The notes beneath the pieces were generated by a model that ran no database searches, was not told the DNA's origin, and was given only the letters and a program-made list of their open reading frames with translations. Both the position numbers and the translations under genes were made by a program. Shown here one piece after another: positions 23,195-59,200 of a stretch of DNA of 64,000 bases; position 1 is the first letter of the stretch, and every line of letters starts with the position of its first letter. The DNA comes from an uncultured Gammaproteobacteria bacterium (GTDB lineage: Bacteria; Patescibacteriota; Microgenomatia; JAMCZE01), in NCBI GenBank assembly GCA_964641255.1, contig CAZXMM010000001.1:79757-143756 (forward strand). The letters are read 5' to 3'.

Positions 23195-24604
23195 ATGGCT
23201 ACTAATGACGAGCTTAGCAAAATCTGGCATATTGTTCTTGGGGAACTAGAAGTAGAGCTGGGTAAAAGCAACTTCTCCCTCTATCTTAAAAACTCTGCTC
23301 TCCTAGCTCTTTCTGATGGGATAGCTACAATTGGTTTTCCCAGTAAGATTACGGGTGACCAGGCCAGCTCCAGATATTACGCCTTAATCCAAAATACTTT
23401 ACAAAAAATTAGCAAGGTGTCTCCTCTTAGTCTGATCTTCGAGGTTGATAGCAGCCTAGGGACCAAAAACCAGCACCCAGACAACAGTGACAGTTTTGGT
23501 CCCATTTTTAGTCTGCCCAAGGACGACTCCACCGCCTATACCGAGGCGGTTAAACGCTCTAGGTTGCGCCAAGATTTCAGCTTTGACGAATTTTGTGTCA
23601 GCACCAGTAACCAGCTCGCTTTTGCGGCCGCCCAGTCGGTGGGGAAAAATCCCGGCAAAAACTATAACCCGCTTTTCCTTTGGGGAGGTGTTGGGGTGGG
23701 AAAGACCCACTTAATGCAGGCAATTGGCCATGAGATTTTGCGCAAGAACCCCCGAGCTAGAGTCGTGTACGCTCCTGGTGAACAATTCACTAACGAAATA
23801 ATTGAGGGGATTAGGACCAAAAACACTCGGGAGTTTAAGGAAAAGTACCGAAGCGCTGACGCTCTACTGATTGATGATATCCAGTTTCTCTCGGGAAAAG
23901 ATACCGCGCAGGAAGAATTTTTCCATACTTTTAACGCCCTGCAGCAAAATGAAAAACAGGTGGTCCTTACTTCGGACCGCAAACCGGTAGATATCAAATT
24001 TATCGAAGATCGTCTCAGAAGTCGTTTTGAGGGTGGTCTAGTAGCGGACATATCCACACCAGACTCAGAACTCAAAACCGCTATCTGTATATCAAAAGCC
24101 CATAAACGAGGAATAGAGCTATCCAGTACCTTGGCTGCAGCCATTACTAATAATGTAGATAATATTCGAAGCCTGGAGGGTACCCTCCAACGGGTAGTCA
24201 CTGAGTCAGAAATCAGAAACACCCCCATTACCGAAGACCTTATTGTTCGGGTCCTGGGTCTTCCAGAAAATTTGAGTCAGGGTAATGGTGGAGTGGGAAA
24301 CCGACTGGACAGTCGACTAGTTTTAGATACGGTCTGTGCCTTTTATAATCTCCCAATCAAATTAATTAAGGGCGAAAAACGGGATAAACCCATTGCTCAG
24401 CCACGCCAAATCATTATGTACCTGCTCAAAAAAAACACTGGAATGACTCTTGAGGAAATAGCTGATTTTTTGGGAGGCCGTGACCACACCACCATCATGC
24501 ACGGAGTTAAAAGGGTAGAGGGACTACTACAAAACAACGACCGAATTCGAGGCGAGATCAGCCAACTAGAAAACCGTCTTCATTTGTTACACCAAACCTC
24601 CTGA
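23195..24604 (+). CDS. dnaA: chromosomal replication initiator protein DnaA
   Basis: Walker A GGVGVGKTHLM, the AAA+ box and the C-terminal helix-turn-helix DNA-binding domain (IAQPRQIIMYLLKKNTGMTLEEIADFLGGRDHTTIMHGV). Confidence 0.95.
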   Translation: MATNDELSKIWHIVLGELEVELGKSNFSLYLKNSALLALSDGIATIGFPSKITGDQASSRYYALIQNTLQKISKVSPLSLIFEVDSSLGTKNQHPDNSDSFGPIFSLPKDDSTAYTEAVKRSRLRQDFSFDEFCVSTSNQLAFAAAQSVGKNPGKNYNPLFLWGGVGVGKTHLMQAIGHEILRKNPRARVVYAPGEQFTNEIIEGIRTKNTREFKEKYRSADALLIDDIQFLSGKDTAQEEFFHTFNALQQNEKQVVLTSDRKPVDIKFIEDRLRSRFEGGLVADISTPDSELKTAICISKAHKRGIELSSTLAAAITNNVDNIRSLEGTLQRVVTESEIRNTPITEDLIVRVLGLPENLSQGNGGVGNRLDSRLVLDTVCAFYNLPIKLIKGEKRDKPIAQPRQIIMYLLKKNTGMTLEEIADFLGGRDHTTIMHGVKRVEGLLQNNDRIRGEISQLENRLHLLHQTS

Positions 24605-24913: not shown

Positions 24914-26059
24914 ATGGAAATTGAAATACTCCAGGAAAATTTAGCCACTGCCCTTAGTAAAGTTTGTCGCTTGATCACCTCTCGGCCGCCGATTCCTATT
25001 CTTACCCACGTATTCCTCGAAGCTAAAAGCGGCCAATTAACCCTTATTGCTTCGAACACAGAGACTACGGTTACTGCCCAAATTGGGGCCAAAGTAGTTA
25101 GTGAGGGGGCGTTTACCTTGCCAGCCAAGATTTTGTTCGAGTTGGTATCTTCCCTGCCTGCAGACAAGCTGCTTTTAAAAGTGGCAGAGGCTCAACTCGA
25201 GATTAAGGCCAAAAGTTTTCGGGGCAAGCTAAGTGGGACTAGTGGGGAAGAGTTTCCTAAACTTATTCCTCTGGACGATCAAAAAAAAGGAACCATGCAG
25301 CTTAGACGAGAGGATTTTGAAGGCATGATTTCTCATACCGTCTTTGCTGCTGCTACTGATGAGAGTAGGGCAGTCCTAACTGGTGTCCTGGTGCGGCTTT
25401 CTAAAGACACGGTTACTCTTGCCGCAACAGACGGGTTTCGTCTGTCACAGGTTACACTTAGTGATGTAAAAACTGTGGGTTTAGAAAACGAAACATTTAT
25501 TATCCCCGCCCATTCTTTATCAGAAATGCTGCGTTTTCTTGCTGATGGAACAGAAAAAGAGACGGCCCAGATCTCCCTGGATATTTATGGTGACAGTCAG
25601 GTTGCACTGTCTTTTGGTGACTCAAAAATTTATTCACGCCTGATTGCGGGTAAGTTTCCTAATTTTGAGTCAATTATCCCGACTTCCTTTGAGGGGAAAT
25701 TTACCCTAGAGAGCGAGGCGTTTAGTAAGACCCTTCGGCTTGCGGCAATTTTTGCCCGAGAAAGTGCCAATATTGTCAAACTGACCCTAACTCCAAAAAC
25801 TTCGGTGGTGTCGTTGTCAGCTAACGCCGCCCAAGTAGGGGAAAATGAAACCACGACAGAAATTGTGTGGGACAAGACTCCGTCTGAAGCTCTCACCATT
25901 GCCTTTAACTACCGCTATCTTTTGGATTTTGTCGGTAACATGGGCAAGGATAAAGAGCTGACATTTGAACATACCGGGCCACTAGCTCCGGGAGTGTTTA
26001 GGGTCAAAGGCAACGCTAATTATTTCCACGTAGTAATGCCGGTTCGGGTGCAAGGCTAG
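24914..26059 (+). CDS. dnaN: DNA polymerase III subunit beta (sliding clamp)
   Basis: N-terminus MEIEILQENLATALSKV. Three-domain, roughly 380-aa clamp pattern. Conserved dnaA-dnaN synteny. Confidence 0.9.
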   Translation: MEIEILQENLATALSKVCRLITSRPPIPILTHVFLEAKSGQLTLIASNTETTVTAQIGAKVVSEGAFTLPAKILFELVSSLPADKLLLKVAEAQLEIKAKSFRGKLSGTSGEEFPKLIPLDDQKKGTMQLRREDFEGMISHTVFAAATDESRAVLTGVLVRLSKDTVTLAATDGFRLSQVTLSDVKTVGLENETFIIPAHSLSEMLRFLADGTEKETAQISLDIYGDSQVALSFGDSKIYSRLIAGKFPNFESIIPTSFEGKFTLESEAFSKTLRLAAIFARESANIVKLTLTPKTSVVSLSANAAQVGENETTTEIVWDKTPSEALTIAFNYRYLLDFVGNMGKDKELTFEHTGPLAPGVFRVKGNANYFHVVMPVRVQG

Positions 26060-26070
26060 AATGGCTGACT

Positions 26071-26856
26071 ATGGATGTCTTAACCTCGACCAATAACCCC
26101 CTCGTTAAACGCATTAAAAAGCTGTTACTTGATCGGGTATATCGCTATGAAGAGGGAGCCTTTTGGTGTGATGGGGTGAATTTCGTTAGTCAGGCAATTG
26201 ATAATGGTTGGGAAATAGACACTCTTGTGTTTGTTCCCCAAAAAATAGACAGCGACTTTAAAAGAGCGGTTTGGACTAAGGCGTTGGGTGTCAAAAAAGT
26301 AGCTGTTTCTGAATCTGTCTACCAGGCACTCTCGAGTAAAAAAGACATTCAAGGTGTGGGGGCGATTATTAAGATGAAAACGGGCGACACTCTTGAGCGG
26401 GGATTAGGAGTAGTTCTTGAACATCTCCAAACACCCGGTAATCTCGGTACCATTATGCGAACTTGTTTGGCGTTTGATATTAAATGCCTCTATCTTATTG
26501 CTCCAAGTGTAGATCCCTTTAATCCCGATACGGTAAGGGCATCAATGGGGGCGCTGTTTGGATTAAAAATTGTAGTGATTGCTGACTTTGCAGGTTTTGC
26601 CAGTCAAATTAAGAAGAACCTGCGTTACTGCATCGGTACCTCACTTCAGGAAGCAACGCTCCTGTCTAATTACTCAAGACAGCTAGAGGGAACGGAACTT
26701 ATTTGGTTTGGTAATGAGGCCAAGGGACTATCAATAGAAGCTAGGCGGTTATGCCAGGATAGTCTTAAAGTGCCGATTAGTCCCATAGTAGATTCTTTAA
26801 ACGTTGCCGAGTGTGCCGCCATCATTCTTTACACCCTGCTCCACGGGAGTAGATGA
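26071..26856 (+). CDS. SpoU/TrmH-family RNA 2'-O-methyltransferase
   Basis: LEHLQTPGNLGTIMRTCLAFD ... VDPFNPDTVRASMGALF ... LNVAECAAIILY are SPOUT class motifs. The 3' end overlaps the convergent VirB4-like gene by 60 nt. Confidence 0.8.
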   Translation: MDVLTSTNNPLVKRIKKLLLDRVYRYEEGAFWCDGVNFVSQAIDNGWEIDTLVFVPQKIDSDFKRAVWTKALGVKKVAVSESVYQALSSKKDIQGVGAIIKMKTGDTLERGLGVVLEHLQTPGNLGTIMRTCLAFDIKCLYLIAPSVDPFNPDTVRASMGALFGLKIVVIADFAGFASQIKKNLRYCIGTSLQEATLLSNYSRQLEGTELIWFGNEAKGLSIEARRLCQDSLKVPISPIVDSLNVAECAAIILYTLLHGSR

Positions 26857-28872
26857 CGACGCCGCAGTAGGCGTAGTATCGACCTGTGCGGAGGGGGTGG
26901 GGCCATCTGGATTAATCATTGGTACTTCGGGATTATTGTCTACACTCGCTTCGGAAGCGGCCCGCTCTGCCGCTTCTCTTTTTTGAGCTAAGTCACGAGG
27001 ATTAGTACTGATAAGATTGTACTCTTCTGGCGAAGCAACAACTCGCATGGCAACGTGGGAGGATCCGGCAAAAAATAGTCCTTCGCCAACGTTTGAGGAG
27101 AGGAGAAGGCTTTTCTCTCCCTCGGATAGATAAAATACCTCTGAAACTTTATCAATCGCCGCGGGAGACTGTTTCATTAAAATTTGAATCGAGCTATTAG
27201 TCACCACAGTTTTACCAAGGTCTGTTGCCAAAAAGTCCTCGATATCTTGGGTAATCGTTGTCAGGCCAAGATAATATTTTCTGGCTCGCTTGGCAAAGTT
27301 CCATAAGAATTCAGCTGAGGCTTGGTTTTTCATCAGGTACCAGGCCTCATCCACGATTAGGATACGCCGATGTAAATCTTTCTTAACGGAGTTCCATACA
27401 AAGTCCATGATGATAAAGATAGCGAGACTTCTTAATTGGTCCTCGAGATTCTTAAACGAGAAGACTGTAAAGGGGTTATTAAGTTGTAGGTTGCTTCGTT
27501 GATTAAAAATTGTGCCAAAGCTTCCTTTGACGAATTTTTCGAGACGCAGAGCAATATTTTGGGCTTTTTCTGTTTCCATTCCCACCAAAACTTTATAGAA
27601 GTCTTCCAAAATTGGCGGTTCCTTGCTGTGGGTTTTTATATCATAGGTGATTCCCTTTTCGTGATAGGTAAGCTCTAGGGCGTTATGGATAATGGCGTCT
27701 TCCTCGGCCGTAGTGTCACCGACCATGATTTTAATAAGTCGCGTGAGAGTGAAGCCAATTTTATATTGCAAGTCATTTTCTTGGGGATCGTCGTTGGTAC
27801 CAGCCAAATCAAAGGGGTTGATATGGGTATTACTACTAAAGGAGAAAGAAATATAATCACCACCCACTGATCTGGCTAGAGTTTCGTACTCTTCTTCCGG
27901 ATCAATAATGATGACTCTCGTGTCAAACATTAAGGCTCGCAGGGCTTCGAGTTTCACTAAGAAACTTTTCCCTCCGCCGGATTTACCCAAAACTACTTCG
28001 TTAGCATTTTCCAGACTAAAACGGTCGAAGATGATGAGTGACTCATTATGTTCATTGATACCGTAGAGCACCCCCTCATTAGCTGTCAGCTCTGAGGAGG
28101 TAAAAGGAAAGGTAGTGGCAAGGGAAGTAGTGTCCATGTTCCGGGTGATCATGAGATTGTCCTGACAAAGGGGCTGGGTAGTTTTAAAGCCGTCCTCCAT
28201 TTGCAGAGTGGCCTTTTTGCCATTAAGAAGGAGTGATCCTAGAGTAGAGGCTACTTGCTTACTGATTTGGTCGAGGTCGGCTACTGAAGTAGCTGAAATA
28301 GTGAAGTAGAGACCAAACTGAAAGAACCGCTCCGCTCCTTTAGCTAATTGTTCCTGCAAAGCCAGGGCATCGTCTAGAGCTACTTGAACACCAGGATCAA
28401 TGACTCGTCCCCGTTTAATATCACTTTCGATGGTCGCTTCCATCTCGGCAATTTTTCGTTTTAGGTCGGACAAAATATCCCGAGATTCAACTGGATAGAT
28501 AAACATGCCAATATCAATCGAGGAGTCAAAATCAATAATGGGGTCTAACCAGTTGGCAGCAACAAAGCGGGGATAGCCAGCGATAAAAAGTGTTCTTAGA
28601 TAAGTATCACCTATTTTGATGTGGTCAAAGTCCACCTCGATCTTTTCTGGAGCGATTAAGTCTACAACCGACTCAAAAGCTTCACTTGGTTTCATAGTGG
28701 CAGGATCTGGTTTCGTAGTGACCAAAGACGCGTCACTCGTAGGAATCCCAGCGATGGGTTCCCACTCGGGTTCGGCTTTTGGGACATCGCTAACTTTTGC
28801 TCGCCCTGGTTTTGCTAAATCGGCAGCAATTTTAGCAACCGGTGCTTTCTTTTTTAAAAAGGGTAGATTCAT
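26797..28872 (-). CDS. VirB4/TraC/TrbE-family T4SS ATPase, middle and ATPase domains
   Basis: GYPRFVAANWLDPII (VirB4 middle-domain motif), Walker A LGKSGGGKSFLV and Walker B RILIVDEAWYLM. A low-complexity Pro/Thr/Ser C-terminal tail follows. Confidence 0.8.
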   Translation of the reverse strand: MNLPFLKKKAPVAKIAADLAKPGRAKVSDVPKAEPEWEPIAGIPTSDASLVTTKPDPATMKPSEAFESVVDLIAPEKIEVDFDHIKIGDTYLRTLFIAGYPRFVAANWLDPIIDFDSSIDIGMFIYPVESRDILSDLKRKIAEMEATIESDIKRGRVIDPGVQVALDDALALQEQLAKGAERFFQFGLYFTISATSVADLDQISKQVASTLGSLLLNGKKATLQMEDGFKTTQPLCQDNLMITRNMDTTSLATTFPFTSSELTANEGVLYGINEHNESLIIFDRFSLENANEVVLGKSGGGKSFLVKLEALRALMFDTRVIIIDPEEEYETLARSVGGDYISFSFSSNTHINPFDLAGTNDDPQENDLQYKIGFTLTRLIKIMVGDTTAEEDAIIHNALELTYHEKGITYDIKTHSKEPPILEDFYKVLVGMETEKAQNIALRLEKFVKGSFGTIFNQRSNLQLNNPFTVFSFKNLEDQLRSLAIFIIMDFVWNSVKKDLHRRILIVDEAWYLMKNQASAEFLWNFAKRARKYYLGLTTITQDIEDFLATDLGKTVVTNSSIQILMKQSPAAIDKVSEVFYLSEGEKSLLLSSNVGEGLFFAGSSHVAMRVVASPEEYNLISTNPRDLAQKREAAERAASEASVDNNPEVPMINPDGPTPSAQVDTTPTAASSSTPVEQGVKNDGGTLGNV

Positions 28873-28879
28873 ATTATTG

Positions 28880-29563
28880 CTATGACGCGGTACTGTTACT
28901 ATTACTTGTCTTCGTAGTCACGGGGGGTGGGGTAGGACTAGCAGCGGTGCGGTGATTGTAGATATCATGAAACAGGTCGATTAATTCCACAGTAGTTAGT
29001 TGTCTAGCCCGAAGCCCCAGTCGTCCGAGCTGTCTTAAAATATGATCCCGCTTGGGTAGTAGTGCGGTTTTAGCTTTTTCGACAATAGTTTCGGCCGGGA
29101 GTGGAAGACCGGTCGTTTTTTTCTTAAATAGTCCGCCGGCGCTGGAAGCCACCCCAAGCTCCAAAAAGCTAAAAGGAATGGCAATGTAAAATTTTTTATC
29201 GAGCACGTTGTTATTTTTTACTGTATTTGCAATGAAATCGCGATATTTTGCGATCTGATCAGCCAGGAGAGGATTTTTTTGTTTTTCTCGAGCCTCTTCA
29301 AGGAGAGCCATATAGGCTGAAACATCCTTTTGTTGGCTACGTACCACAATTTGAATGGAAAAATTGAGCGAGTTTAATAGACCAGCGTAAGCGTAGATAA
29401 TCGACTCCTGTTCTTGTTCTGACAGCAGGCCAAAATTAACCGCCGACACGGCAATTATTAGAGCCACCGAGCCGTCTTTGATGATAACCAGGTCGTCAAC
29501 AATATCCGCCACCTGCAGATGATCTTGTGTAGTTCCTTTAATAGCTATTTTAGTTACATCCAT
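28880..29563 (-). CDS. VirB4-family N-terminal domain, encoded as a separate 227-aa ORF
   Basis: TTQDHLQVADIVDDLVIIKDGSVALIIAVSAVNFGLLSEQEQESIIYAYAGLLNSLNFSIQIVVRS follows the conserved N-terminal pattern of Gram-positive-type VirB4 homologues (PrgJ/TcpF/ConE). Its stop at 28880-28882 lies 7 nt upstream of the ATPase ORF start at 28872, in a different frame. Confidence 0.6.
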   Translation of the reverse strand: MDVTKIAIKGTTQDHLQVADIVDDLVIIKDGSVALIIAVSAVNFGLLSEQEQESIIYAYAGLLNSLNFSIQIVVRSQQKDVSAYMALLEEAREKQKNPLLADQIAKYRDFIANTVKNNNVLDKKFYIAIPFSFLELGVASSAGGLFKKKTTGLPLPAETIVEKAKTALLPKRDHILRQLGRLGLRARQLTTVELIDLFHDIYNHRTAASPTPPPVTTKTSNSNSTAS

Positions 29564-29577
29564 ATGCGCTAGCGTTA

Positions 29578-30834
29578 CTAGGTTACCGCTATCTTGGGTT
29601 TGATTTCTAGTGGTGGCATGACCCCACCACTGAGAGTAATTTCCAACAGATCAAAATTAAAATTCTGTTTTTCCAGCTCTAAATAGTAGGTACCATTCTC
29701 TAGGGGAGTGCTCCCGATAAACTGGCCGACCTTGTTAGCTTTAAGTGCCCGAATCGAATTGCCGGCTTTGTCTTTGATGATAATGATGGTTCCGTCAATT
29801 GGGTTATTGTTTTGGTCGAGGACCACCCCGTTTATGACATTAGGTATTTCTGTAAGAGTGATGGGGGTAGGAGGCTTGATCACCTTATCGACTACCCGAA
29901 TCTGAGGTGGGCGGCGTTCAATAACTGGCATTTGATAGGCAGTAGTAGTTAGTGGGGCAACTCGCTGGCTGGTAATTTGCGACCGAAGGTTGGTTATTTG
30001 GCTGCTCAGTTTGCTCTTTTCTAGAGTCAAGGCGTCTAATTTTTCTTGCTCTCGGGGCGATAGTTTACCTACCAAAACCAGACTGTTTTTAAGCTCGTCA
30101 ATTTGCATCATCAGCGCCTTGCTTTGGTTGACAAGCTCGTCAACTAGCGCCTCGTTCTTAGTCAGTTCTGAGGCGTTCTTCTCGAGTTTTTCCGCCGAGG
30201 TGGCACGACGTCTTGCCTCCAAAGCGTCAATTGTCACCACCTCCTTAGGGGGAATGTTGTCCTTTGGCTCATTTAATTTTTCCTGACGGATTTTTTCTAG
30301 GGCATCGATAGACACAATGGTTTGTCTCGACAAGTCCTCTTGAACCGGTGGGGTTACTGGGGTGGTATCAGTAAGAGGTAGGGTCGTGCGGTTGGCCATT
30401 AATTGTTGTACGTTGATTTCTCCACCACCCTCAGGTGGTTTTGGGGCGCTAGTGTTTTGTGGTTGGGCCATAGTAATCGGTGTAAAGTTTAATTGCGGGG
30501 CGCTGGGTAATGATTTTTTTTCAGTTGGAGCTGCTGTTTTGGAACCTTGTCGTTTCCAAATATAGACAGTTGGTTTATAGATAGCTCTAAAAAAATTAAC
30601 CAACCAAATGTCTAGTGGCCTTTCTTCGATGGGCAAAAAGGCCAGAGCGACCCCAAAGAGGGCAAAAAAGATGGCGAAGGGATACTTAAGAACCGGATGC
30701 CAATTGGCAATATAGAAAACATAAGCCAGTATGGCCCCACCAGCTAGTTCTCCAAACTGTTTGAGGGTCATGTCACCGACCAGTTTGAACTTAAATCCAG
30801 TAATGTCTTGGGGGACAGCGTGTTGTTCCATCAA
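29578..30834 (-). CDS. PrgI/VirB3-like T4SS membrane protein fused to a coiled coil and a C-terminal carboxypeptidase-regulatory-like beta-sandwich domain
   Basis: N-terminus VPQDITGFKFKLVGDMTLKQFGELAGGAILAYVFY resembles the PrgI family (VPKDIR.YE.KF.GPFT.K.F..IAGG). Next come two TM helices, a Pro/Thr linker, a roughly 150-aa heptad-rich coiled coil (ELKNSLVLVGKLSPREQEKLDALTLEKSKLSSQITNLRSQ), then NGVVLDQNNNPIDGTIIIIKDKAGNSIRALKANKVGQFIGSTPLENGTYYLELEKQNFNF. Confidence 0.55.
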   Translation of the reverse strand: MMEQHAVPQDITGFKFKLVGDMTLKQFGELAGGAILAYVFYIANWHPVLKYPFAIFFALFGVALAFLPIEERPLDIWLVNFFRAIYKPTVYIWKRQGSKTAAPTEKKSLPSAPQLNFTPITMAQPQNTSAPKPPEGGGEINVQQLMANRTTLPLTDTTPVTPPVQEDLSRQTIVSIDALEKIRQEKLNEPKDNIPPKEVVTIDALEARRRATSAEKLEKNASELTKNEALVDELVNQSKALMMQIDELKNSLVLVGKLSPREQEKLDALTLEKSKLSSQITNLRSQITSQRVAPLTTTAYQMPVIERRPPQIRVVDKVIKPPTPITLTEIPNVINGVVLDQNNNPIDGTIIIIKDKAGNSIRALKANKVGQFIGSTPLENGTYYLELEKQNFNFDLLEITLSGGVMPPLEIKPKIAVT

Positions 30835-44617: not shown

Positions 44618-44643
44618 TCCTGCCTTGGGGCAGGAATTTGTTT
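44618..44643 (+). terminator. rho-independent terminator-like hairpin
   Basis: tcctgcc-ttgg-ggcagga stem-loop followed by a tttgttt T-rich tract, 32 nt after the stop of the YtxH-like gene. Confidence 0.5.
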
Positions 44644-44951: not shown

Positions 44952-45635
44952 ATGAGATCAATTAAGCACCCCAAACAGGTAAGTTGGTTAAGAGATGTAA
45001 TTTTGGGAGGCCAAGACGGACTCGTTAATGTTTTTGGTGTTATCTTGGGGGTGACGGCCGCTAGTGGTGACCAGCGAATTTTGATTGCTGCTAGTCTGGC
45101 GGCCGCATTCGCTGAGGCCATTTCTTTAGGTGCAGTAGCTTACACCTCGGCCATGGCGCAGCGGGATTACTATCAAAAAGAACTAGAATTGCAACGACAA
45201 GAAATAGAGTCTAAGCCTGGTGAGGAACAAGCAAAAGTAAGAGTAATTTATGAAGCCAAAGGGTTTAGCGGCGACATTCTTGAGCGGGTAGTAGCGACCA
45301 TCACAAGTAATAAACAGATTTGGACCCTAGTTCTTCTTGAGGAGGAACATGGTCTTTCTCCTCTAGATACCGAACGAATTGTGGTTTCCGCTTGCGTAGT
45401 TGGGCTAGCCGCTTTTATTGGTTCACTTATTCCTCTGGGCCCATTTGTCTTTCTCGCTCGGGAGAGTGCGGTGCCAATGGCAGTATTAGTCTGTTCGCTT
45501 GCATTATTTATCCTTGGGGTCTCTGAATCGAAACTCTACGTAGGTAAATGGTGGAAAAATGGACTTAGGATAATGATTATTGGTATGGGTGCCGCCGCCG
45601 CCGGCTATTTGGTGGGCAAAATTTTTAGTGTATAG
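44952..45635 (+). CDS. VIT1/CCC1-family iron/manganese transporter
   Basis: LRDVILGGQDGLVNVFGVILGV at the N-terminus, an acidic central loop (EEEHG) and C-terminal TM helices, as in the VIT family. Confidence 0.7.
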   Translation: MRSIKHPKQVSWLRDVILGGQDGLVNVFGVILGVTAASGDQRILIAASLAAAFAEAISLGAVAYTSAMAQRDYYQKELELQRQEIESKPGEEQAKVRVIYEAKGFSGDILERVVATITSNKQIWTLVLLEEEHGLSPLDTERIVVSACVVGLAAFIGSLIPLGPFVFLARESAVPMAVLVCSLALFILGVSESKLYVGKWWKNGLRIMIIGMGAAAAGYLVGKIFSV

Positions 45636-45644
45636 TTAGCCTCT

Positions 45645-46253
45645 ATGTTTGAAACAATTTTTGATTTGGAAACTAAAAAGTTTTTTGACGATATTGGCGA
45701 GTCTGATCCCAGCAAACTGGGTGTTTCCATTGTGTCACTCTATTTTCGAGAATTGGATGGTGACTTTAAAGAAATAAGTGGTACCATGATGAGCTTTTGG
45801 GAGAGCGAATTTAATCAGATGTGGAAATATTTTTATGATTCCCAGCGAATAATAGGATTTAATACTGTTCGCTTTGACGTTCCAGCCCTAAGGCCCTATG
45901 CCCCAAAAGATTTTGCCAGGTTGCCTCACTTTGATATTTTAGAGAAACTTAAGCTGGAATCGGGACACCGCGCTTCATTAAATAAGATTGCCATCGATAC
46001 CTTAGGGGACTCTAAGATCGATCACGGAGCCAACGCTATTGAATATTGGAACAAGGGAGATGAAGTTAGCTTAGGACTGTTAAAAAAATACTGCGAGTAT
46101 GATGTTGTTTTGACGAAGAACATTTACGACTTCGGAAGTCAAAATAAATATCTTAAATTTACTGACCACTGGAATAATCCAAGAACCGTGACTATCGATT
46201 TTTCTTATCCTACTGATTTTGCTCCTGAAGCTAAACAAACTAGCCTATTTTGA
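45645..46253 (+). CDS. DEDDy-type 3'-5' exonuclease domain protein
   Basis: Exo I IFDLETKK (D-x-E), Exo II GFNTVRFDVP (D), Exo III YCEYDVVLTKNIY (Y-x3-D). Confidence 0.55.
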   Translation: MFETIFDLETKKFFDDIGESDPSKLGVSIVSLYFRELDGDFKEISGTMMSFWESEFNQMWKYFYDSQRIIGFNTVRFDVPALRPYAPKDFARLPHFDILEKLKLESGHRASLNKIAIDTLGDSKIDHGANAIEYWNKGDEVSLGLLKKYCEYDVVLTKNIYDFGSQNKYLKFTDHWNNPRTVTIDFSYPTDFAPEAKQTSLF

Positions 46254-46265
46254 TACAATGGGCCT

Positions 46266-46790
46266 ATGTTAAAGCGCCAGTTTCCACCACCGACTCTTTA
46301 TTATGGTTCGGTCTACTTTGACAATAATTATGTTTTGGTGCCAAATATTTTTGTTCGACCCAGTATCGACGAAGTGTTCGCTCTAGCCAACTCTATTGTC
46401 TTACTTAATGCTCCTAGGTACCAAAAGATTCGGGCTAGAAAGCTCGAGTATGTTGACAGCTTTGTAATAGATGACGACTTTTACCATCCGGTTCCCCAAG
46501 AAAACCAAAAAGAATGGACACCGGAATTTAACCGAGAGCAAGTTGTTGGCGGCGAAGCCGCCATCCCTAACGCCCTGGTCACAATTTTGATTGGCAAAAT
46601 TACCAATAAGCGAGATAAAAAGTTTTTCCCCAAAGGAGACGCTTTCTTCCTTGATGAGTGGTATCATACTTCTGATCCAAAAGAGGCTCGTGAGTTGATG
46701 AAAAAGTCAGACCTGCCACTTTTTATTCCCGCTCAGTGGGCCCACCTTTATAAGCCAACCGAAGAAGTGATTTGGAGCGGATGGAACTAA
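46266..46790 (+). CDS. hypothetical protein (174 aa)
   Basis: No motif recognised. Lies between the two nuclease genes. The downstream gene overlaps by 19 nt or starts 3 nt after it. Confidence 0.4.
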   Translation: MLKRQFPPPTLYYGSVYFDNNYVLVPNIFVRPSIDEVFALANSIVLLNAPRYQKIRARKLEYVDSFVIDDDFYHPVPQENQKEWTPEFNREQVVGGEAAIPNALVTILIGKITNKRDKKFFPKGDAFFLDEWYHTSDPKEARELMKKSDLPLFIPAQWAHLYKPTEEVIWSGWN

Positions 46791-47653
46791 CTATGGCTAA
46801 AGATAAATTTTCTGCCACCTGGGTATCCCACTCTTCAATCACAGACTTTTTGAATTGTCCTCGGGCCTATTATCTCAAAAACATGTGGAAACGCCCCGAG
46901 ACTAAACACAAAGTGCAAATTGTCACCCCCGCGTTATCTTTAGGCTCAGCCATTCATGAGGTGGTGGAGGCACTGTCCATTTTGCCAACAGACCGGCGCT
47001 TTGACGAAGGTCTCATTCCCAAGTTTGAGCAAGTTTGGGTTAGCTATAGTGGTAAGGTGGGAGGGTTTTTGGATGCCGATACCGAACACCACTATAAGGA
47101 GCGGGGACTAGCGATGTTGAGGCGAGTAACAAAGCACCCGGGACCACTTAAAAATTTGGCTGTCAAAATCAACATGGAACTGCCCCATTTTTGGTTATCG
47201 GAAGAAGAAAATATTATCCTCTGTGGCAAAATTGATTGGCTGGAGTACTTTAAAGAACAAAATGCGGTCAGAATCATCGATTTTAAAACTAGCAAAAGTG
47301 AAGAAAGGAAAAGCTCGCTCCAGCTGCCAGTGTACATGCTACTGGCTACCAATTGCCAAACGAGGAGGGTGGCGGGGGCAGCCTATTGGTATTTAGAATC
47401 TAGCGATGAAATTACCGAAAAAGTACTGCCACAGTATGACAGCGCTTTGGGAGAAGTCCTCAAGATTGCACGGTCAGTTAAGTTAGCTCGCAGCTTGGCC
47501 AGATTGACCTGTGCCACTAATGGCTGCCACTTTTGTGAACCGCTGGAAAAAATTTTCCGTGGCGAAGCACAGTTTGTTGGACAAAATGCTTTTGGTCAGG
47601 ATTTGTTTCTAATTCCCGAAGTTACCAAAGAAATGGCAGACACCATTTTATAA
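46772..47653 (+). CDS. PD-(D/E)XK nuclease, RecB-family / Cas4-like, with a four-Cys Fe-S cluster signature
   Basis: N-terminal Cys (FLNCPRAYYL), GKIDWLE ... IIDFKTSK (D ... D/E-x-K), LQLPVYMLL (QxxxY) and C-terminal CATNGCHFC. The start could alternatively be ATG 46793 (MAKDKF). Confidence 0.6.
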   Translation: MERMELTMAKDKFSATWVSHSSITDFLNCPRAYYLKNMWKRPETKHKVQIVTPALSLGSAIHEVVEALSILPTDRRFDEGLIPKFEQVWVSYSGKVGGFLDADTEHHYKERGLAMLRRVTKHPGPLKNLAVKINMELPHFWLSEEENIILCGKIDWLEYFKEQNAVRIIDFKTSKSEERKSSLQLPVYMLLATNCQTRRVAGAAYWYLESSDEITEKVLPQYDSALGEVLKIARSVKLARSLARLTCATNGCHFCEPLEKIFRGEAQFVGQNAFGQDLFLIPEVTKEMADTIL

Positions 47654-47689: not shown

Positions 47690-48328
47690 ATGAATAAAAA
47701 TTTAATTTACGTGTTGGTCACAATTGTTCTTCTTGTTCTTCTTGGCGGAGCGGGTTACCTGTTTTTAACTAACACTACTACTCCAGCGGCAATGATGGCA
47801 GACAAGCCCCAGGTAGTGGTAGATACTCCTCAAACACTCACAGATTTACTTGCTCTTGGTGAGTCACAAAAATGCAGCTATCAGGATCAAACCGAAAAAA
47901 CAAATGTGAGGGGAGTAACCTATATTGCCGCTGGTAAAATCCGCAGTGATTTTATCACTAGTGTCTCTGGTCAGGAGACCGGGGGGCACATGCTGCTAAC
48001 TAATAGTGTCGCTAATGTTTGGATGGATGGCCAAAAAACTGGTTTTAAGATGGCCCTGGATACTATCGGTGACACAACCGTCAACACTGAAGCTAGTAAA
48101 ACAGTAGACTTAAATAAAGCCATGAATTTTAAGTGTGAACCGTGGACCGTGGATGAAAAAGTATTTACCCTTCCCGGCGGTGTGAGTTTTTCTGAGCTAC
48201 CGACTTCAAAAATGTCGCCAGACGACAAAGAGTCCGCGTCCGGGGCTGCCAATAGCCAGTGTGTCGCCTGTAGCTATCTTACCGGTGAGGAGAAAGCTCA
48301 GTGCCTGGTCGCACTTAAATGTAATTAG
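47690..48328 (+). CDS. secreted/membrane-anchored hypothetical protein with a Cys-rich C-terminus
   Basis: N-terminal TM helix or signal anchor. C-terminus reads CVACSYLTGEEKAQCLVALKCN. Confidence 0.45.
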   Translation: MNKNLIYVLVTIVLLVLLGGAGYLFLTNTTTPAAMMADKPQVVVDTPQTLTDLLALGESQKCSYQDQTEKTNVRGVTYIAAGKIRSDFITSVSGQETGGHMLLTNSVANVWMDGQKTGFKMALDTIGDTTVNTEASKTVDLNKAMNFKCEPWTVDEKVFTLPGGVSFSELPTSKMSPDDKESASGAANSQCVACSYLTGEEKAQCLVALKCN

Positions 48329-48369
48329 TTGTCCCCCGTTCTTCTTCTCTTGTGTTAGCATAGCAATGA

Positions 48370-49683
48370 GTGAAAAAAATCAACACCATTTTTATTGCCA
48401 ATTTGTCAGAAATTTCTCTAAACCTGGTGCACTTTATGCATCCCCAGGAGGTCGAAGCGGAGATTTCCGAAGACCATGACTTGTGTGATCGCTTTCTTTT
48501 TTCCCTGCCAAATAATTCGTTACTCCTGACTCCCTATCTGCTGGATCAAGACTTTTTTACAGATAGCTGCACACTTCTGCGACTAAGAAATATTATTAAT
48601 TTGGCTCCCAAAACCATTGGTCAGTCCATTTGTGAGGCCATAAATGCCGATGCCGATCTTTTTGAAAAGTTAGTCGTAACCATTAAAAATAATCCGGGAG
48701 TGGCTATTGTCTCCTACGCTGCCACCAGTGAGTTTCTAGCGCTAGTGGAGCAGCTACGTAAAAGACAACTGGTGTTTACCACTCCCGAAGCTCCAAGTGC
48801 TCAGGGCCACTGGGTTTATGATTTTTTTGGTTCCAAGTGCGGCTTTCGTCAGGCTAAAATGCCGGCTCCCCCGGGGTTCATCTGTTCTAATAGAGAAGAA
48901 CTACTGGGTTGGAGCGAATATTTTTTAAAGGAAACTGCCGGGTGTGTCATTAAAACCAATCGGGGATTAGCTGGGGCTGGACTACGAATTATTAGAAAAA
49001 CCGAAGTCGGCAAAAGCCCACGGGAATTTGTGGCCCAGATTTTAGACTCTGAAAATTACTGGCAAGATTTCCCATTAGTAGTTGAAGAATTTCTCCCGCC
49101 TGATATCACAATATGTGGGGGGGCACCCAACATCGAGCTAAAGATACAAGGTGGTCGAGTGACTCCACTTTACGTATGCAGTATGCGAATCAGTAACGAG
49201 GGAGTATTTCAAGGAATCGAATTTGGCAAGGATAGTGTCCCGGTGATCATAGCCAGGCAACTGCGGGTCTTTGGTTTAGAATATGGGCAAATACTTAAGC
49301 AGTATAACTATCGGGGGTTCTTTGAAATGGACTTTGTCTGGACTAGGGGCCAAAGGCTAGTTCCTATAGAGAGTAACTTGCGTCGGACTGGTGGAACTCA
49401 CGCTTTCGAGTTAGCCAGGCGACTGTTAGGAAATGACTTTTATCGCCATTTTTATCTTACTACTAACAACCGTTCTCCGATCCCTGCTTTAAAAAAACTT
49501 TCCTATCATGAGGTGCGTTCTAGGGTTGCCCCCCTGCTGTTCCCAATCGCTACAAGCAAGACAGGGGTAGTTCTTACTGTAACTAAGGGTATTGGTCACG
49601 GGCGGCTGGGTTATGTCGTCATTGGCAAAACGCGGCAGCAAGCCCACCAAATAGAAACGGCGCTACTTAGCTTACTCACATGA
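48370..49683 (+). CDS. ATP-grasp fold enzyme (ligase), substrate unknown
   Basis: GCVIKTNRGLAGAGLRII (Lys/Gly-rich loop), VVEEFLPPD and GFFEMDFVWTRGQRLVPIESNLRRTGG (E-x-N-x-R, Mg-binding motif of ATP-grasp enzymes). Confidence 0.5.
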   Translation: MKKINTIFIANLSEISLNLVHFMHPQEVEAEISEDHDLCDRFLFSLPNNSLLLTPYLLDQDFFTDSCTLLRLRNIINLAPKTIGQSICEAINADADLFEKLVVTIKNNPGVAIVSYAATSEFLALVEQLRKRQLVFTTPEAPSAQGHWVYDFFGSKCGFRQAKMPAPPGFICSNREELLGWSEYFLKETAGCVIKTNRGLAGAGLRIIRKTEVGKSPREFVAQILDSENYWQDFPLVVEEFLPPDITICGGAPNIELKIQGGRVTPLYVCSMRISNEGVFQGIEFGKDSVPVIIARQLRVFGLEYGQILKQYNYRGFFEMDFVWTRGQRLVPIESNLRRTGGTHAFELARRLLGNDFYRHFYLTTNNRSPIPALKKLSYHEVRSRVAPLLFPIATSKTGVVLTVTKGIGHGRLGYVVIGKTRQQAHQIETALLSLLT

Positions 49684-50890
49684 ATTTAGCTTTTGCACTT
49701 CGTCCCCGAACTCTGGATGAATTTTTTGGACAAACCCACTTGGTGGGTCAGGGAAAGATTATTAACAGGCTAATTACTGGGGGACAACTCTTTTCAATGA
49801 TTTTGTGGGGGCCACCCGGAAGTGGAAAGACGACTTTAGCAAAAATAATTGTCCAGTCACTTAAGACTGAATTTTTTGAACTATCGGGTGTTACTGCTGG
49901 GAAAGAGGAATTGTTGAAAGTGATTGCTCTGGCTAAGGAAAATCAAAAACAGGGTAAATCCACTATTCTTTTCATCGATGAAATCCACCGCTGGAACAAG
50001 TCCCAACAAGATGCCCTTCTCCCTTATGTAGAAAATGGTCTACTCACTCTTATTGGCGCGACAACCGAAAACCCCTCGTTTGAAGTTATTAGTCCACTTC
50101 TTTCAAGAGCAGGGTATTTGTTTTAGAGGGGCTAGCCGCAAGAGACTTAGAAAGAATTATTGACCAGGCTCTAAGTGACAAAGAAAGGGGGCTGGGAAAA
50201 TTAAACAAAAAAATAAACCAAGCTGGAAAGGAGCTCATTGTTCGGCTCTCGGGTGGGGATGCCCGCATTGTTCTTAATGCTCTAGAGATGGCAGCGACTG
50301 CTTATGATGAGAAGGTGATTACAGAAGGCATCATTCAAGAGATTTTCCAGACAAAATCAGCTGGTCTTTACGACAAAAAAGCGGATGAGCATTACAATGT
50401 AATTTCTGCTTACATCAAAAGTGTTCGGGGATCTGATCCTGACGCCGCCCTCTACTATCTGGCCCGAATGTTGGCAAGCGGAGAAGACCCAAAGTTTATC
50501 GCCAGACGCATGATCATTCTGGCCTCCGAGGATATTGGTTTGGCTGATCGGGGGGCACTAATTCAGGCAAATGCGTGCTTTGAAGCGGTCAGTAAAATTG
50601 GTATGCCGGAAGCCCAACTTACTCTTGCCCACGGAACACTTTATTTGGCTACTGCCAAAAAATCCCGAGGGGTGGCTAACGCTCTGGAAAAAGCTAAAGA
50701 AGTGGTGGTGCAATTTCCCAGCGAACCTATCCCGCTTTTCCTGCGTAATGCCCCGACCAAGCTAATGAAAAATCTGGGTTATGGTAAGGAGTATCGTTGG
50801 GGAGAAGATTATGTAGGTCCCACGGTCAAACGGTCTTTTTTACCAGATAGGATAAAAGATAAGAAATTTTACGAAGAAGCATCCAAATAG
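49680..50890 (+). pseudogene. rarA: replication-associated recombination protein A (MgsA/RarA, AAA+), disrupted by a frameshift near 50110-50115
   Basis: ORF 49680..50126 holds Walker A GPPGSGKTTLAKI, Walker B ILFIDEIHRWNK and ends ...LLSRAGYLF*. The RarA consensus continues in the next frame from about 50104 (RVFVLEGLAARDLERIIDQAL ... GDARIVLNALE) into ORF 50288..50890. A missing A in gcagggtat relative to gcaAgggtat explains the break. Confidence 0.7.
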
Positions 50891-57310: not shown

Positions 57311-59200
57311 TTAGTCTGCTCCTCCTCCACCCCCGCCTCCTCCTCCACCCCCGCCTCCTCCGCCACTCGAAAAACTTCCCCCTCCACCACTGCTCATTGT
57401 CGTACCTACAGAGGCAGTAAGGTTAGACATACTTTGGGTAAGGGCGGTTCCAAAATCGAGTCCAAGTCCTGAGGCGCCTGAGGTGAAATCAACCTCAGTT
57501 CCTTTGCTACTATACACATGATACCAGGTGGGAATATAGGTAGTGGCTCCCTCTTGTCCCAGAATGAGGGGAAGATATTTAGAAACCTGTTTGGCAACAC
57601 CAAGGGCGGTACCGTAGACAAGCATTTCTTCCCAGATAACAAGAGCGTGGGGTAACTCATCTTTAAAGTGGGAAAAGTCTCGTAGAAAATTTCTAAAGCC
57701 CTCCCACCGTTTCGCTTCCAGAGAAGCCTCTTTGGTCCAACGGTAAAATACTCTGCCCCAAAAGGCAAAGAGAAACGCCCCACCAATTACTGCCCAGATA
57801 GCGAGGGCCATAAAAGCAATATCGGTCATAATCATAAACAGGATGGAGAGAAGGGAAACTACCAATACATTACTGATCACAAAACGAGTGCGCCATTTCT
57901 TGCCTCCTGGTTCCAAAAATTTCTGGCTATCTGCCATGTCCTTAACCGTTTCCATCCAGCCAGTCCAAAAAGCTCTTGTGGTGGTGGGGCTCTTTTTCAT
58001 TTGAGATTTTAAATCGTCAAGGGAAATTTCATCTTCTGTTGTCAGGCTAAAGACAAAATCAAAAAGTTCTTGCTCATAGCTATTGAGGGGGCCATTGGGT
58101 TTATAGCGAGAATCTCCTTTAACGATAAAGTAATCAAAGTCCCGTTTACTGCCGATCCCCAAGATCCCTTTAGTATATTTTTGTCGGCTGTCAATACGAA
58201 TGTGGTGACGTCTGGCTAGGTCCAAAAGCGTAGCTGAGAAGGAGTTGGTGGATACTAAATGATTTTGAGAAACGAGTGCTTCTACCAAAGCGGGTGGGCG
58301 AGTGCTGGGGGGATTATGAATATACTGCGGAACTGAAACATCATACTCTCTTCCGTGTCTTACCCAGATAAGAGTCCAAAACCCGATCCAGCCCAAAATA
58401 CCAAGAAGGACCCCAACGGCGGTAAACTGGGCCACGGTGTGCCAAAAGAGAGTGTCTTGTCTGAAGCGGTCTTCTTCAGCTTTAATGCTAGCTAGATCTT
58501 TGCCAGAAACGCTAGGTCCAGTAATAACACTGGCGGGGAAAACAAATCTGGTTTCCACCATTTGCTTTTTGTCGAGATTATTAACAGTAAACTCTACACT
58601 TTTCCCGTCAAGAATAGCCGAGTTTCCTTGAAGGGGGCCATGACCCCACACGTAGAGATTTTCTTTGCCTACGTCCGTGGGAAGAGATATACGGATTAAC
58701 ACTTTGTCTGTACGAGCGTCCCAGTCCGGGCCGATCATTTTCCAATAAAATTCAGCGACGTCTTGATACTTCGTTACCCCACCCAGAAGAGTGTAAGAAA
58801 GGGTAAAGGTTTTTTCTTCGTTCGCTGAGGAGTGGTAAGCCTCGATGTGTTCGACAGCTCCGTTTCGTTCTGCCGCAAATTTATGAGTTGGCCTGGCGGA
58901 GTTTGCGGTAGGAATAGCTTCGTAAGGAATTACTACCCCGTTGCCAGTCTCACTAAAGGACACCCCATTAATAACTTGCGACTGGGTCAGGGGAATATCC
59001 CAAAACACTCTACTAAAGCTGCCGTCAAAGCTAAAGGTGCGCGCCTCGGTAATATCGACACTGCCATCAGCACTAATAGTTGCGTCAATAACCACCGAGG
59101 GGAAGAAAAAGGTTTTGTTAGCGGCCAAAGCGGCCCCTGGGAAAAGAAAACCTAGTGTTAGAAGCAGAAGGGCAAAGAAAAGTGCAAAGAGAGTTTTCAT
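57311..59200 (-). CDS. DUF2207-family membrane protein with a C-terminal poly-Gly tail
   Basis: Signal peptide MKTLFALFFALLLLTLGFLFPGAALA, a large extracytoplasmic domain, three TM helices and a terminal SSGGGGSFSSGGGGGGGGGGGGGGGAD. Confidence 0.65.
   Translation of the reverse strand: MKTLFALFFALLLLTLGFLFPGAALAANKTFFFPSVVIDATISADGSVDITEARTFSFDGSFSRVFWDIPLTQSQVINGVSFSETGNGVVIPYEAIPTANSARPTHKFAAERNGAVEHIEAYHSSANEEKTFTLSYTLLGGVTKYQDVAEFYWKMIGPDWDARTDKVLIRISLPTDVGKENLYVWGHGPLQGNSAILDGKSVEFTVNNLDKKQMVETRFVFPASVITGPSVSGKDLASIKAEEDRFRQDTLFWHTVAQFTAVGVLLGILGWIGFWTLIWVRHGREYDVSVPQYIHNPPSTRPPALVEALVSQNHLVSTNSFSATLLDLARRHHIRIDSRQKYTKGILGIGSKRDFDYFIVKGDSRYKPNGPLNSYEQELFDFVFSLTTEDEISLDDLKSQMKKSPTTTRAFWTGWMETVKDMADSQKFLEPGGKKWRTRFVISNVLVVSLLSILFMIMTDIAFMALAIWAVIGGAFLFAFWGRVFYRWTKEASLEAKRWEGFRNFLRDFSHFKDELPHALVIWEEMLVYGTALGVAKQVSKYLPLILGQEGATTYIPTWYHVYSSKGTEVDFTSGASGLGLDFGTALTQSMSNLTASVGTTMSSGGGGSFSSGGGGGGGGGGGGGGGAD
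57321..57364 (-). repeat. tandem 18-nt repeat (cctcctccacccccgcct x2 plus partial) encoding the Gly15 run
   Basis: Direct tandem duplication visible in the plus-strand sequence, inside the 3' end of the DUF2207 gene. Confidence 0.7.

Follow-up and report, generated by a model that had tools for sequence, protein, structure and literature searches.

The stretch analyzed here is a window of 64,000 nucleotides (64 kb) from contig CAZXMM010000001.1 of assembly GCA_964641255.1, an ordinary stretch of the chromosome of a Patescibacteria (Microgenomates-type) bacterium with a tiny genome. The element in question is a run of three genes on its plus strand: (i) exo, encoding a predicted stand-alone DEDDy 3'-5' exonuclease of the family-B DNA polymerase (PolB) type, assigned to PF13482 RNase_H_2 (45645..46253; 202 aa), (ii) a middle gene encoding an orphan protein with a predicted alpha/beta fold (46266..46790; 174 aa), and (iii) a gene encoding a solo Cas4/AddB-like PD-(D/E)XK nuclease with a four-cysteine signature of the iron–sulfur (Fe–S) type (46793..47653; 286 aa). 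The nuclease open reading frame (ORF) offers two candidate starts, TTG at 46772 and ATG at 46793; its homologs all begin with M-[AP]-K-D-K and an independent gene call also starts at 46793, making the ATG most likely the true start. The middle gene and the nuclease gene are therefore separated by 2 nucleotides, with 12 nucleotides between exo and the middle gene, so that an earlier note on this DNA was right about three packed plus-strand genes and most likely wrong about an overlap among them. The gene of a VIT1 iron transporter (44952-45635; PF01988, E 1e-53), unrelated to the trio, ends 9 nucleotides upstream of exo, and most genes in the window are packed equally tightly; the close spacing is thus a trait of the genome rather than evidence for a module. 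Our reading, to which we assign a probability of roughly 0.6, is that two independent, vertically inherited and conserved DNA-maintenance nucleases flank a lineage-specific orphan, that they became juxtaposed in one small clade, and that the three do not make up a conserved functional unit. For each nuclease taken individually, ordinary DNA replication and repair is the likely function, and the DNA end-processing or repair suggested by that note survives in this broad sense.

The evidence for this reading comes largely from genomic context. We assembled an exo-centered set of 82 loci (80 species-level GTDB loci, the window's own locus, L001, and that of a relative, L002) and a nuclease-centered set of 80 metagenome loci (L085-L164). 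The full trio is confined to the source genome and L002, with proteins of L002 61-70% identical to those of the window, gaps of 12 and 2 nucleotides, and all genes co-directional in both genomes; the co-occurrence check thus spoke against the three-gene cassette proposed earlier. Partial linkage is more widespread: the nuclease lies within 8 kb of exo in 18 of the 82 exo-centered loci, spread over four clades of the exo tree, and exo lies within 8 kb of the nuclease in 11 of the 80 nuclease-centered loci, mostly in convergent orientation. Pairs are variously adjacent on the same strand, separated by 1-1.8 kb on the same strand, or convergent. About 75-85% of loci contain no partner within that distance. 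Where the two genes neighbor each other elsewhere, the intervening genes include an antisense cupin and membrane proteins, and a conserved 'third gene' in other clades was considered and rejected, these cupins and membrane proteins being unrelated to the middle protein. The core genes GyrA, RsuA and RarA also lie near exo in 8-10 loci each, which places the exo–nuclease signal on the scale of residual synteny. Frequent neighbors of both exo and the nuclease are housekeeping genes, namely those of an RsuA-type pseudouridine synthase, FtsE/FtsX, PheS/PheT, IF-3, trigger factor, RarA and GyrA, with no helicase among them in either set.

Both nuclease families are conserved in their own right. Relatives of exo are present in 343 species among GTDB genomes, and homologs of exo and of the nuclease are each 50-70% identical across Ames-, Woese-, Gottesman-, Shapiro-, Collier- and Levybacteria. 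Barring generic labels and evidently mislabeled titles, the named sources of the homologs are Patescibacteria (Gottesman-, Woese-, Collier-, Ames-, Shapirobacteria and others).

Profile searches placed the exo protein in PF13482 (31.9 bits against a cut-off of 22), with a weak match to PF10108 'PolB-exonuclease-like', a match to phrog_403 'DNA polymerase exonuclease subunit', and no match to PF00929 at E<=0.1. Residues D7 and E9 (FDLET), N73 with F77-D78, and Y149 with D153 (YCEYD) are invariant in 27 homologs and fit the DEDDy pattern of D-x-E in Exo I, N-x3-[FY]-D in Exo II and Y-x3-D in Exo III, bearing out the Exo I/II/III motifs and the DEDDy identity that the earlier note had read from the sequence. 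When a profile of the family was searched against all PDB sequences, only the exonuclease domain of Pol delta was matched (E 2.6e-9), with Exo II and Exo III aligned and YCEYD paired with the YCLKD of yeast Pol delta. The AlphaFold2 (AF2) model comprises a single domain with a predicted local distance difference test (pLDDT) score of 92, and the structures that Foldseek ranks highest against it are exonuclease domains taken from family-B polymerases (those of Pol delta, HSV-1 Pol, Tgo Pol and E. coli Pol II; probability 1.00), followed by RNase T (E ~4e-4, template-modeling (TM) score ~0.5). These profiles and models together define exo as a stand-alone family-B-polymerase-type DEDDy exonuclease with predicted 3'-5' activity.

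In its DEDDy motifs and RNase H-like fold, exo resembles the exonuclease domains found within family-B polymerases, as in Pol delta, E. coli Pol II and archaeal PolB, and the stand-alone proteins of PF13482 and PF10108. Unlike the polymerases, however, it has no polymerase domain, and its 202 residues amount to the exonuclease domain, a short linker and a predicted clamp-binding motif. Two other identities were considered and ruled out. DnaQ was rejected on the missing PF00929 match and on Tyr149, which replaces the His of Exo III. MrfB/YprB of Bacillus subtilis, which acts in mitomycin repair, belongs to the same PF13482 family, and some sources name exo homologs 'YprB-like'; however, proteins of the MrfB type contain TPR repeats and are either partnered with or fused to the MrfA/YprA helicase (PMC3985635; bioRxiv 10.1101/2025.09.15.676423), whereas exo is a single domain without a TPR region, has no helicase cluster among its neighbors in the 82 loci, and carries the clamp motif instead. 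Elsewhere on the same contig, ~2.8-4.2 kb past the 3' end of the window (L166 973-2376), a 467-aa protein fuses a DnaQ-like RNase_T domain (PF00929) to GIY-YIG, UvrC_M and Cho_C domains, so that the genome has at least one DnaQ-type exonuclease domain besides the PolB-like one.

The most distinctive feature of exo, which the earlier note had overlooked, is its C-terminal pentapeptide, QTSLF (46236..46250, plus strand), a predicted beta-clamp-binding motif. The pattern Q-x-x-L-F-COOH ends 81 of 81 complete exo homologs from the 82 loci, behind a variable and poorly conserved linker, and none of ~1,935 other predicted proteins from ~1.9 Mb of fetched Patescibacteria DNA ends in this way. In the model, residues 198-202 score below a pLDDT of 50 and are predicted to be disordered. 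The tail reads QMGLF in 16 homologs and QLGLF in 3, the latter being also the C-terminus of E. coli Pol II. The clamp-binding consensus has been described as QL[S/D]LF or, more generally, QxxLF, with QLSLF at the C-terminus of PolC and QMGLF in DnaE of B. subtilis (PMC12309361). The window itself encodes a potential partner: DnaN (24914..26059, plus strand; 381 aa), which lies outside the trio and carries Pfam DNA_pol3_beta domains, is a canonical beta clamp that matches solved beta clamps at E 2e-36, and its C-terminal HVVMPVR aligns with the HVVMPLR of a solved clamp. From these observations we infer that exo is a clamp-tethered 3'-5' DNA exonuclease that would bind DnaN.

The closest functional analogy is with DnaQ. 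Separate proofreading exonucleases with clamp-binding motifs are known in E. coli epsilon (PMC3664792) and mycobacterial DnaQ (PMC11348249), and exo would likewise be a separate 3'-5' exonuclease polypeptide with such a motif; DnaQ, in contrast, is a DEDDh enzyme of PF00929, whereas exo is DEDDy and PolB-like and lacks the alpha-binding C-terminal segment. Mechanistically, the exo tail would dock on DnaN, and the docked enzyme would take 3' nucleotides off primer ends or off intermediates of repair, its most likely role being that of a proofreader or 3'-end editor acting in trans. A fuller version of this proposal, which we offer tentatively and consider improbable as a whole, casts exo as a PolB-derived, clamp-riding enzyme that proofreads or edits 3' ends in trans for the Microgenomates replisome and so parallels DnaQ/epsilon in function while coming from another exonuclease lineage, with the orphan middle protein as a lineage-specific accessory. 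Literature searches on clamp-binding PolB-like exonucleases and on proofreading in Patescibacteria turned up no description of the exo family. What has some novelty here is that, across Microgenomates, a stand-alone PolB-like exonuclease carries an invariant tail of the clamp-binding type, a feature reported in none of the papers searched, with clamp binding itself a prediction.

The nuclease passes the PF12705 PDDEXK_1 profile at 81.5 bits against a cut-off of 22, covering profile positions 2-241 of 247, but narrowly misses the PF01930 Cas4 cut-off (22.5 vs 22.7 bits) and falls well below that of TIGR00372 cas4 (29.6 vs 65 bits); of the family checks suggested beforehand, the PDDEXK_1 one was thus positive and the Cas4 one negative. 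Residues D148, D163-F-K165, Q177..Y181, C22, C240, C245 and C248 are invariant in 31 homologs, in agreement with the earlier description of a Cas4/RecB-like PD-(D/E)XK nuclease with four cysteines. Cys22, in a C-P-R motif (46856..46858, plus strand), is the first predicted Fe–S ligand, and Cys240-x4-Cys245-x2-Cys248 (47510..47536, plus strand) supplies the other three; together the four cysteines would bind an Fe–S cluster. Their distal spacing, C-x4-8-C-x2-C, recurs in 97 of 97 nuclease homologs. In the form C-x4-6-C-x2-C it differs from the C-x2-C-x5-C spacing of Cas4, AddB and Dna2, a difference that weighs against our reading. No close solved structure was found for the nuclease, the best PDB match being to cyanobacterial PD-(D/E)XK proteins at E 0.13. 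The family is large, with at least 5,241 homologous clusters, belongs to Patescibacteria wherever the source is named, and retains 55-70% identity across candidate phyla radiation (CPR) classes.

With solo-Cas4 proteins (PMC5704561) and the AddB and RecB nuclease domains, the nuclease shares the PD-(D/E)XK core, the QxxxY motif and the four conserved cysteines, and it differs from them in an extra conserved C-terminal extension in which acidic residues precede [IV]L. It departs from Cas4 in scoring below the Cas4 cut-offs, in having no adjacent cas1 or cas2, and in its cysteine spacing, and from AddAB and RecBCD in being a 286-aa single domain with no fused or adjacent helicase. Hudaiberdiev et al. 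(2017, PMC5704561) reported an excess of solo-Cas4 or pfam12705 Cas4-like proteins in CPR genomes, with vertical inheritance and no known function, and the nuclease, being stand-alone, common in CPR and vertically inherited, fits this 'solo-Cas4' kind. Its most likely role would be that of a 5'-end or single-stranded DNA-processing enzyme in recombination and repair. At its C-terminus (47600-47653), 93 of 97 homologs have an acidic stretch followed by a terminal [ILV][LI] (…E-[DE]-S-x-[IV]-L), and this conserved end may be a docking peptide. In a distant paralog (L024 15810-16604) the last residues are DDIPF, as in the classic SSB tail.

The middle protein, in which the earlier note could recognize no motif, indeed matched no family in Pfam, NCBIfam, PADLOC or PHROGs; six members of its family searched against Pfam at E<=1, and the family profile searched against PDB sequences at E<=10, likewise returned nothing. 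A word-indexed search of 5.8 billion clusters recovered the protein itself and two relatives, and an exhaustive HMMER search of 1.84 billion representatives added three more matches, giving a total of ~7 sequences among the 15 billion proteins searched. Relatives are 65-72% identical in this protein and 57-70% identical in its neighbors, and because its conservation resembles that of the genes around it, the middle gene is a real gene. An AF2 model built from 6 sequences gave a confident alpha/beta fold (pLDDT 84, predicted TM-score 0.83) with no significant fold match in the PDB or among viral predicted structures. The family C-terminus is conserved as …P-T-E-E-[VI]-x-W-[ST]-G-W-N-COOH, with G172 and N174 invariant; the other invariant polar residues, R58, K59, D130, H160, Y162 and E167, may point to an active site or a binding site.

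The gene order around the middle gene is VIT1-exo-middle-nuclease in the window and in L002, and exo-middle-454 aa-VIT1 in L084. In L003 it is middle-109 aa-exo with no nuclease nearby, and L083, the locus of a 27%-identical relative, lacks exo and has a nuclease on the opposite strand at a distance of 3 kb. The middle gene is therefore beside exo in four of five contexts, on either side, and tracks exo rather than the nuclease. This signal is weak, as all contexts come from close relatives. The middle protein would be a young, lineage-specific orphan that tends to travel with exo and may serve it as an accessory factor.

Several observations weigh against treating exo and the nuclease as wholly independent. 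With random placement in ~1-Mb genomes, 1-2 loci would be expected to show the two genes in proximity against the 18 and 11 observed, an enrichment of ~10-fold, so that the proximity is real, and the nuclease always lies on the 3' side of exo in the exo-centered pairs. Furthermore, PF13482 domains are found fused to Cas4-like DUF83 domains in COG2251 (Majorek et al., PMC3985635), where the same two Pfam-level domains share one polypeptide and provide a precedent for cooperation. Some functional coupling of exo and the nuclease could accordingly exist, and these fusions are why we keep a minor share of belief, well short of an even chance, for a genuine DNA-end-processing module of two nucleases, possibly with an adaptor. 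Here the clamp-tethered 3'-5' exonuclease and the Cas4-like nuclease, acting 5'-3', would work on both strands of a DNA end or gap as a helicase-less analog of the dual nucleases of AddAB/RecBCD, with the middle protein bridging or regulating them in this lineage. The enrichment, which can be put at 10-fold or more and spans the four exo clades with the nuclease always downstream, the co-directional genes with their 12- and 2-nucleotide gaps in both the window and L002, and the frequent presence of RarA nearby all speak for such cooperation. However, most loci lack a partner within 8 kb, many pairs are convergent and hence not operons, and unrelated genes (cupin, membrane proteins) intervene. 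GyrA, RsuA and RarA neighbor exo at about half the frequency of the nuclease, again the scale of residual synteny, and the middle gene is missing from nearly all genomes. Moreover, neither exo nor the nuclease matches the NCBIfam models that hit the fused nucleases, and, in contrast to COG2251, they are encoded by separate and usually unlinked genes.

A role in defense, in which two nucleases would degrade invading DNA as an anti-phage or anti-plasmid cassette, appears highly improbable, and the earlier suggestion to this effect did not hold. Solo-Cas4 proteins have been speculated to have defense roles in small genomes (PMC5704561), and PADLOC returned matches of the nuclease to its Cas4, Argonaute-associated Cas4-like nuclease and DruK models; these are weak (E 1e-8 at best) and reflect generic Cas4-domain similarity, while PADLOC matched neither exo nor the middle protein. 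The annotated flanks contain no recognized defense genes, the neighborhoods are of the housekeeping type rather than defense islands, conservation is high and looks vertical, base composition is the same as in the surroundings, and the predicted clamp-binding tail points to replication and repair. Nor is this a CRISPR adaptation module, as the earlier note had rightly held: tandem- and direct-repeat scans of the window revealed no CRISPR-like array, and no cas genes were present in the Pfam annotation covering ~44 kb of it or among the neighbors of the 80 nuclease homologs. A phage origin was also rejected, a tblastn search against 50,697 phage records yielding nothing for exo and one marginal match at 24% identity for the nuclease. 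Only slightly less improbable is that exo is an RNA-processing enzyme similar to RNase T or oligoribonuclease, lying beside the nuclease by coincidence. The significant RNase T structures in Foldseek and a Pfam name that says only 'RNase H-like' would allow it, but the best matches in both sequence and structure are to family-B DNA polymerase exonuclease domains, the active site is DEDDy rather than DEDDh, the tail is invariantly of the clamp-binding type, and PF00929 is not matched. We therefore retain the reading of two independently maintained nucleases flanking an orphan.

In its chromosomal setting, dnaA (23195-24604; 469 aa) lies beside a change in the sign of the GC skew at ~24-26 kb, which adjoins dnaA and dnaN, and the window probably spans the replication origin; on this basis the trio sits ~20 kb from the origin, in an ordinary chromosomal region. 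By exact sequence, the window maps to a 950-kb NCBI contig and to a 67.7-kb Logan contig. Scans of the whole window found no tRNA and no Rfam family. Between 43.5 and 50.5 kb, promoter-like sites occur at chance level only, and a terminator scan found a sole good hairpin at 44618-44635, upstream of the gene run. Given the compactness of the genome, one transcript probably carries VIT1 and all three genes of the trio here.

Beyond the nuclease, the space leading to RarA (47690-49683) contains two genes, one for a Cys-rich protein of 212 aa with a membrane anchor and one for an ATP-grasp-like protein (PGM1_C) of 437 aa; its counterpart in L002 holds a staphylococcal-nuclease-like gene on the opposite strand, and the segment is therefore variable. 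In the RarA/MgsA gene itself (49680-50890), which is intact (394 aa) in L002, a single frameshift near 50105-50126 leaves two ORFs of 148 and 200 aa, with a sequencing error, a pseudogene and a programmed shift as candidate explanations. Directly beside dnaN, on the minus strand, is a type-IV-secretion-like cluster (26797-30834) encoding a 691-aa P-loop ATPase of the VirB4/TraG type together with one TraC-like and one PrgI-like protein. An 18-nucleotide tandem repeat, CTCCTCCTCCACCCCCGC, is present in 2.7 copies at 57319-57366 within a minus-strand 629-aa ORF without a Pfam match. Among the loci compared, many metagenome-assembled genomes that serve as GTDB representatives (L003-L082) are titled 'uncultured Gammaproteobacteria', 'Atribacterota' or 'Methanoperedens' despite typical Patescibacteria genes, and look like mislabeled records or mis-binned contigs.

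Collectively, the trio as a cassette is ordinary and not worth pursuing as a defense or CRISPR-like system. Both the solo Cas4-like nuclease and the middle protein, an orphan in its fold, extend the set of conserved but uncharacterized CPR proteins. Among Microgenomates, whose repair repertoires are minimal and which cannot be grown on their own, many encode a PolB-like exonuclease that is highly conserved and carries a strict peptide of the clamp-binding type at its C-terminus. If exo does bind DnaN and edit 3' ends, the few clamp-tethered exonucleases on record would be joined by one from a new lineage, and exo would show how these reduced genomes secure the fidelity of replication or the clean-up of 3' ends.

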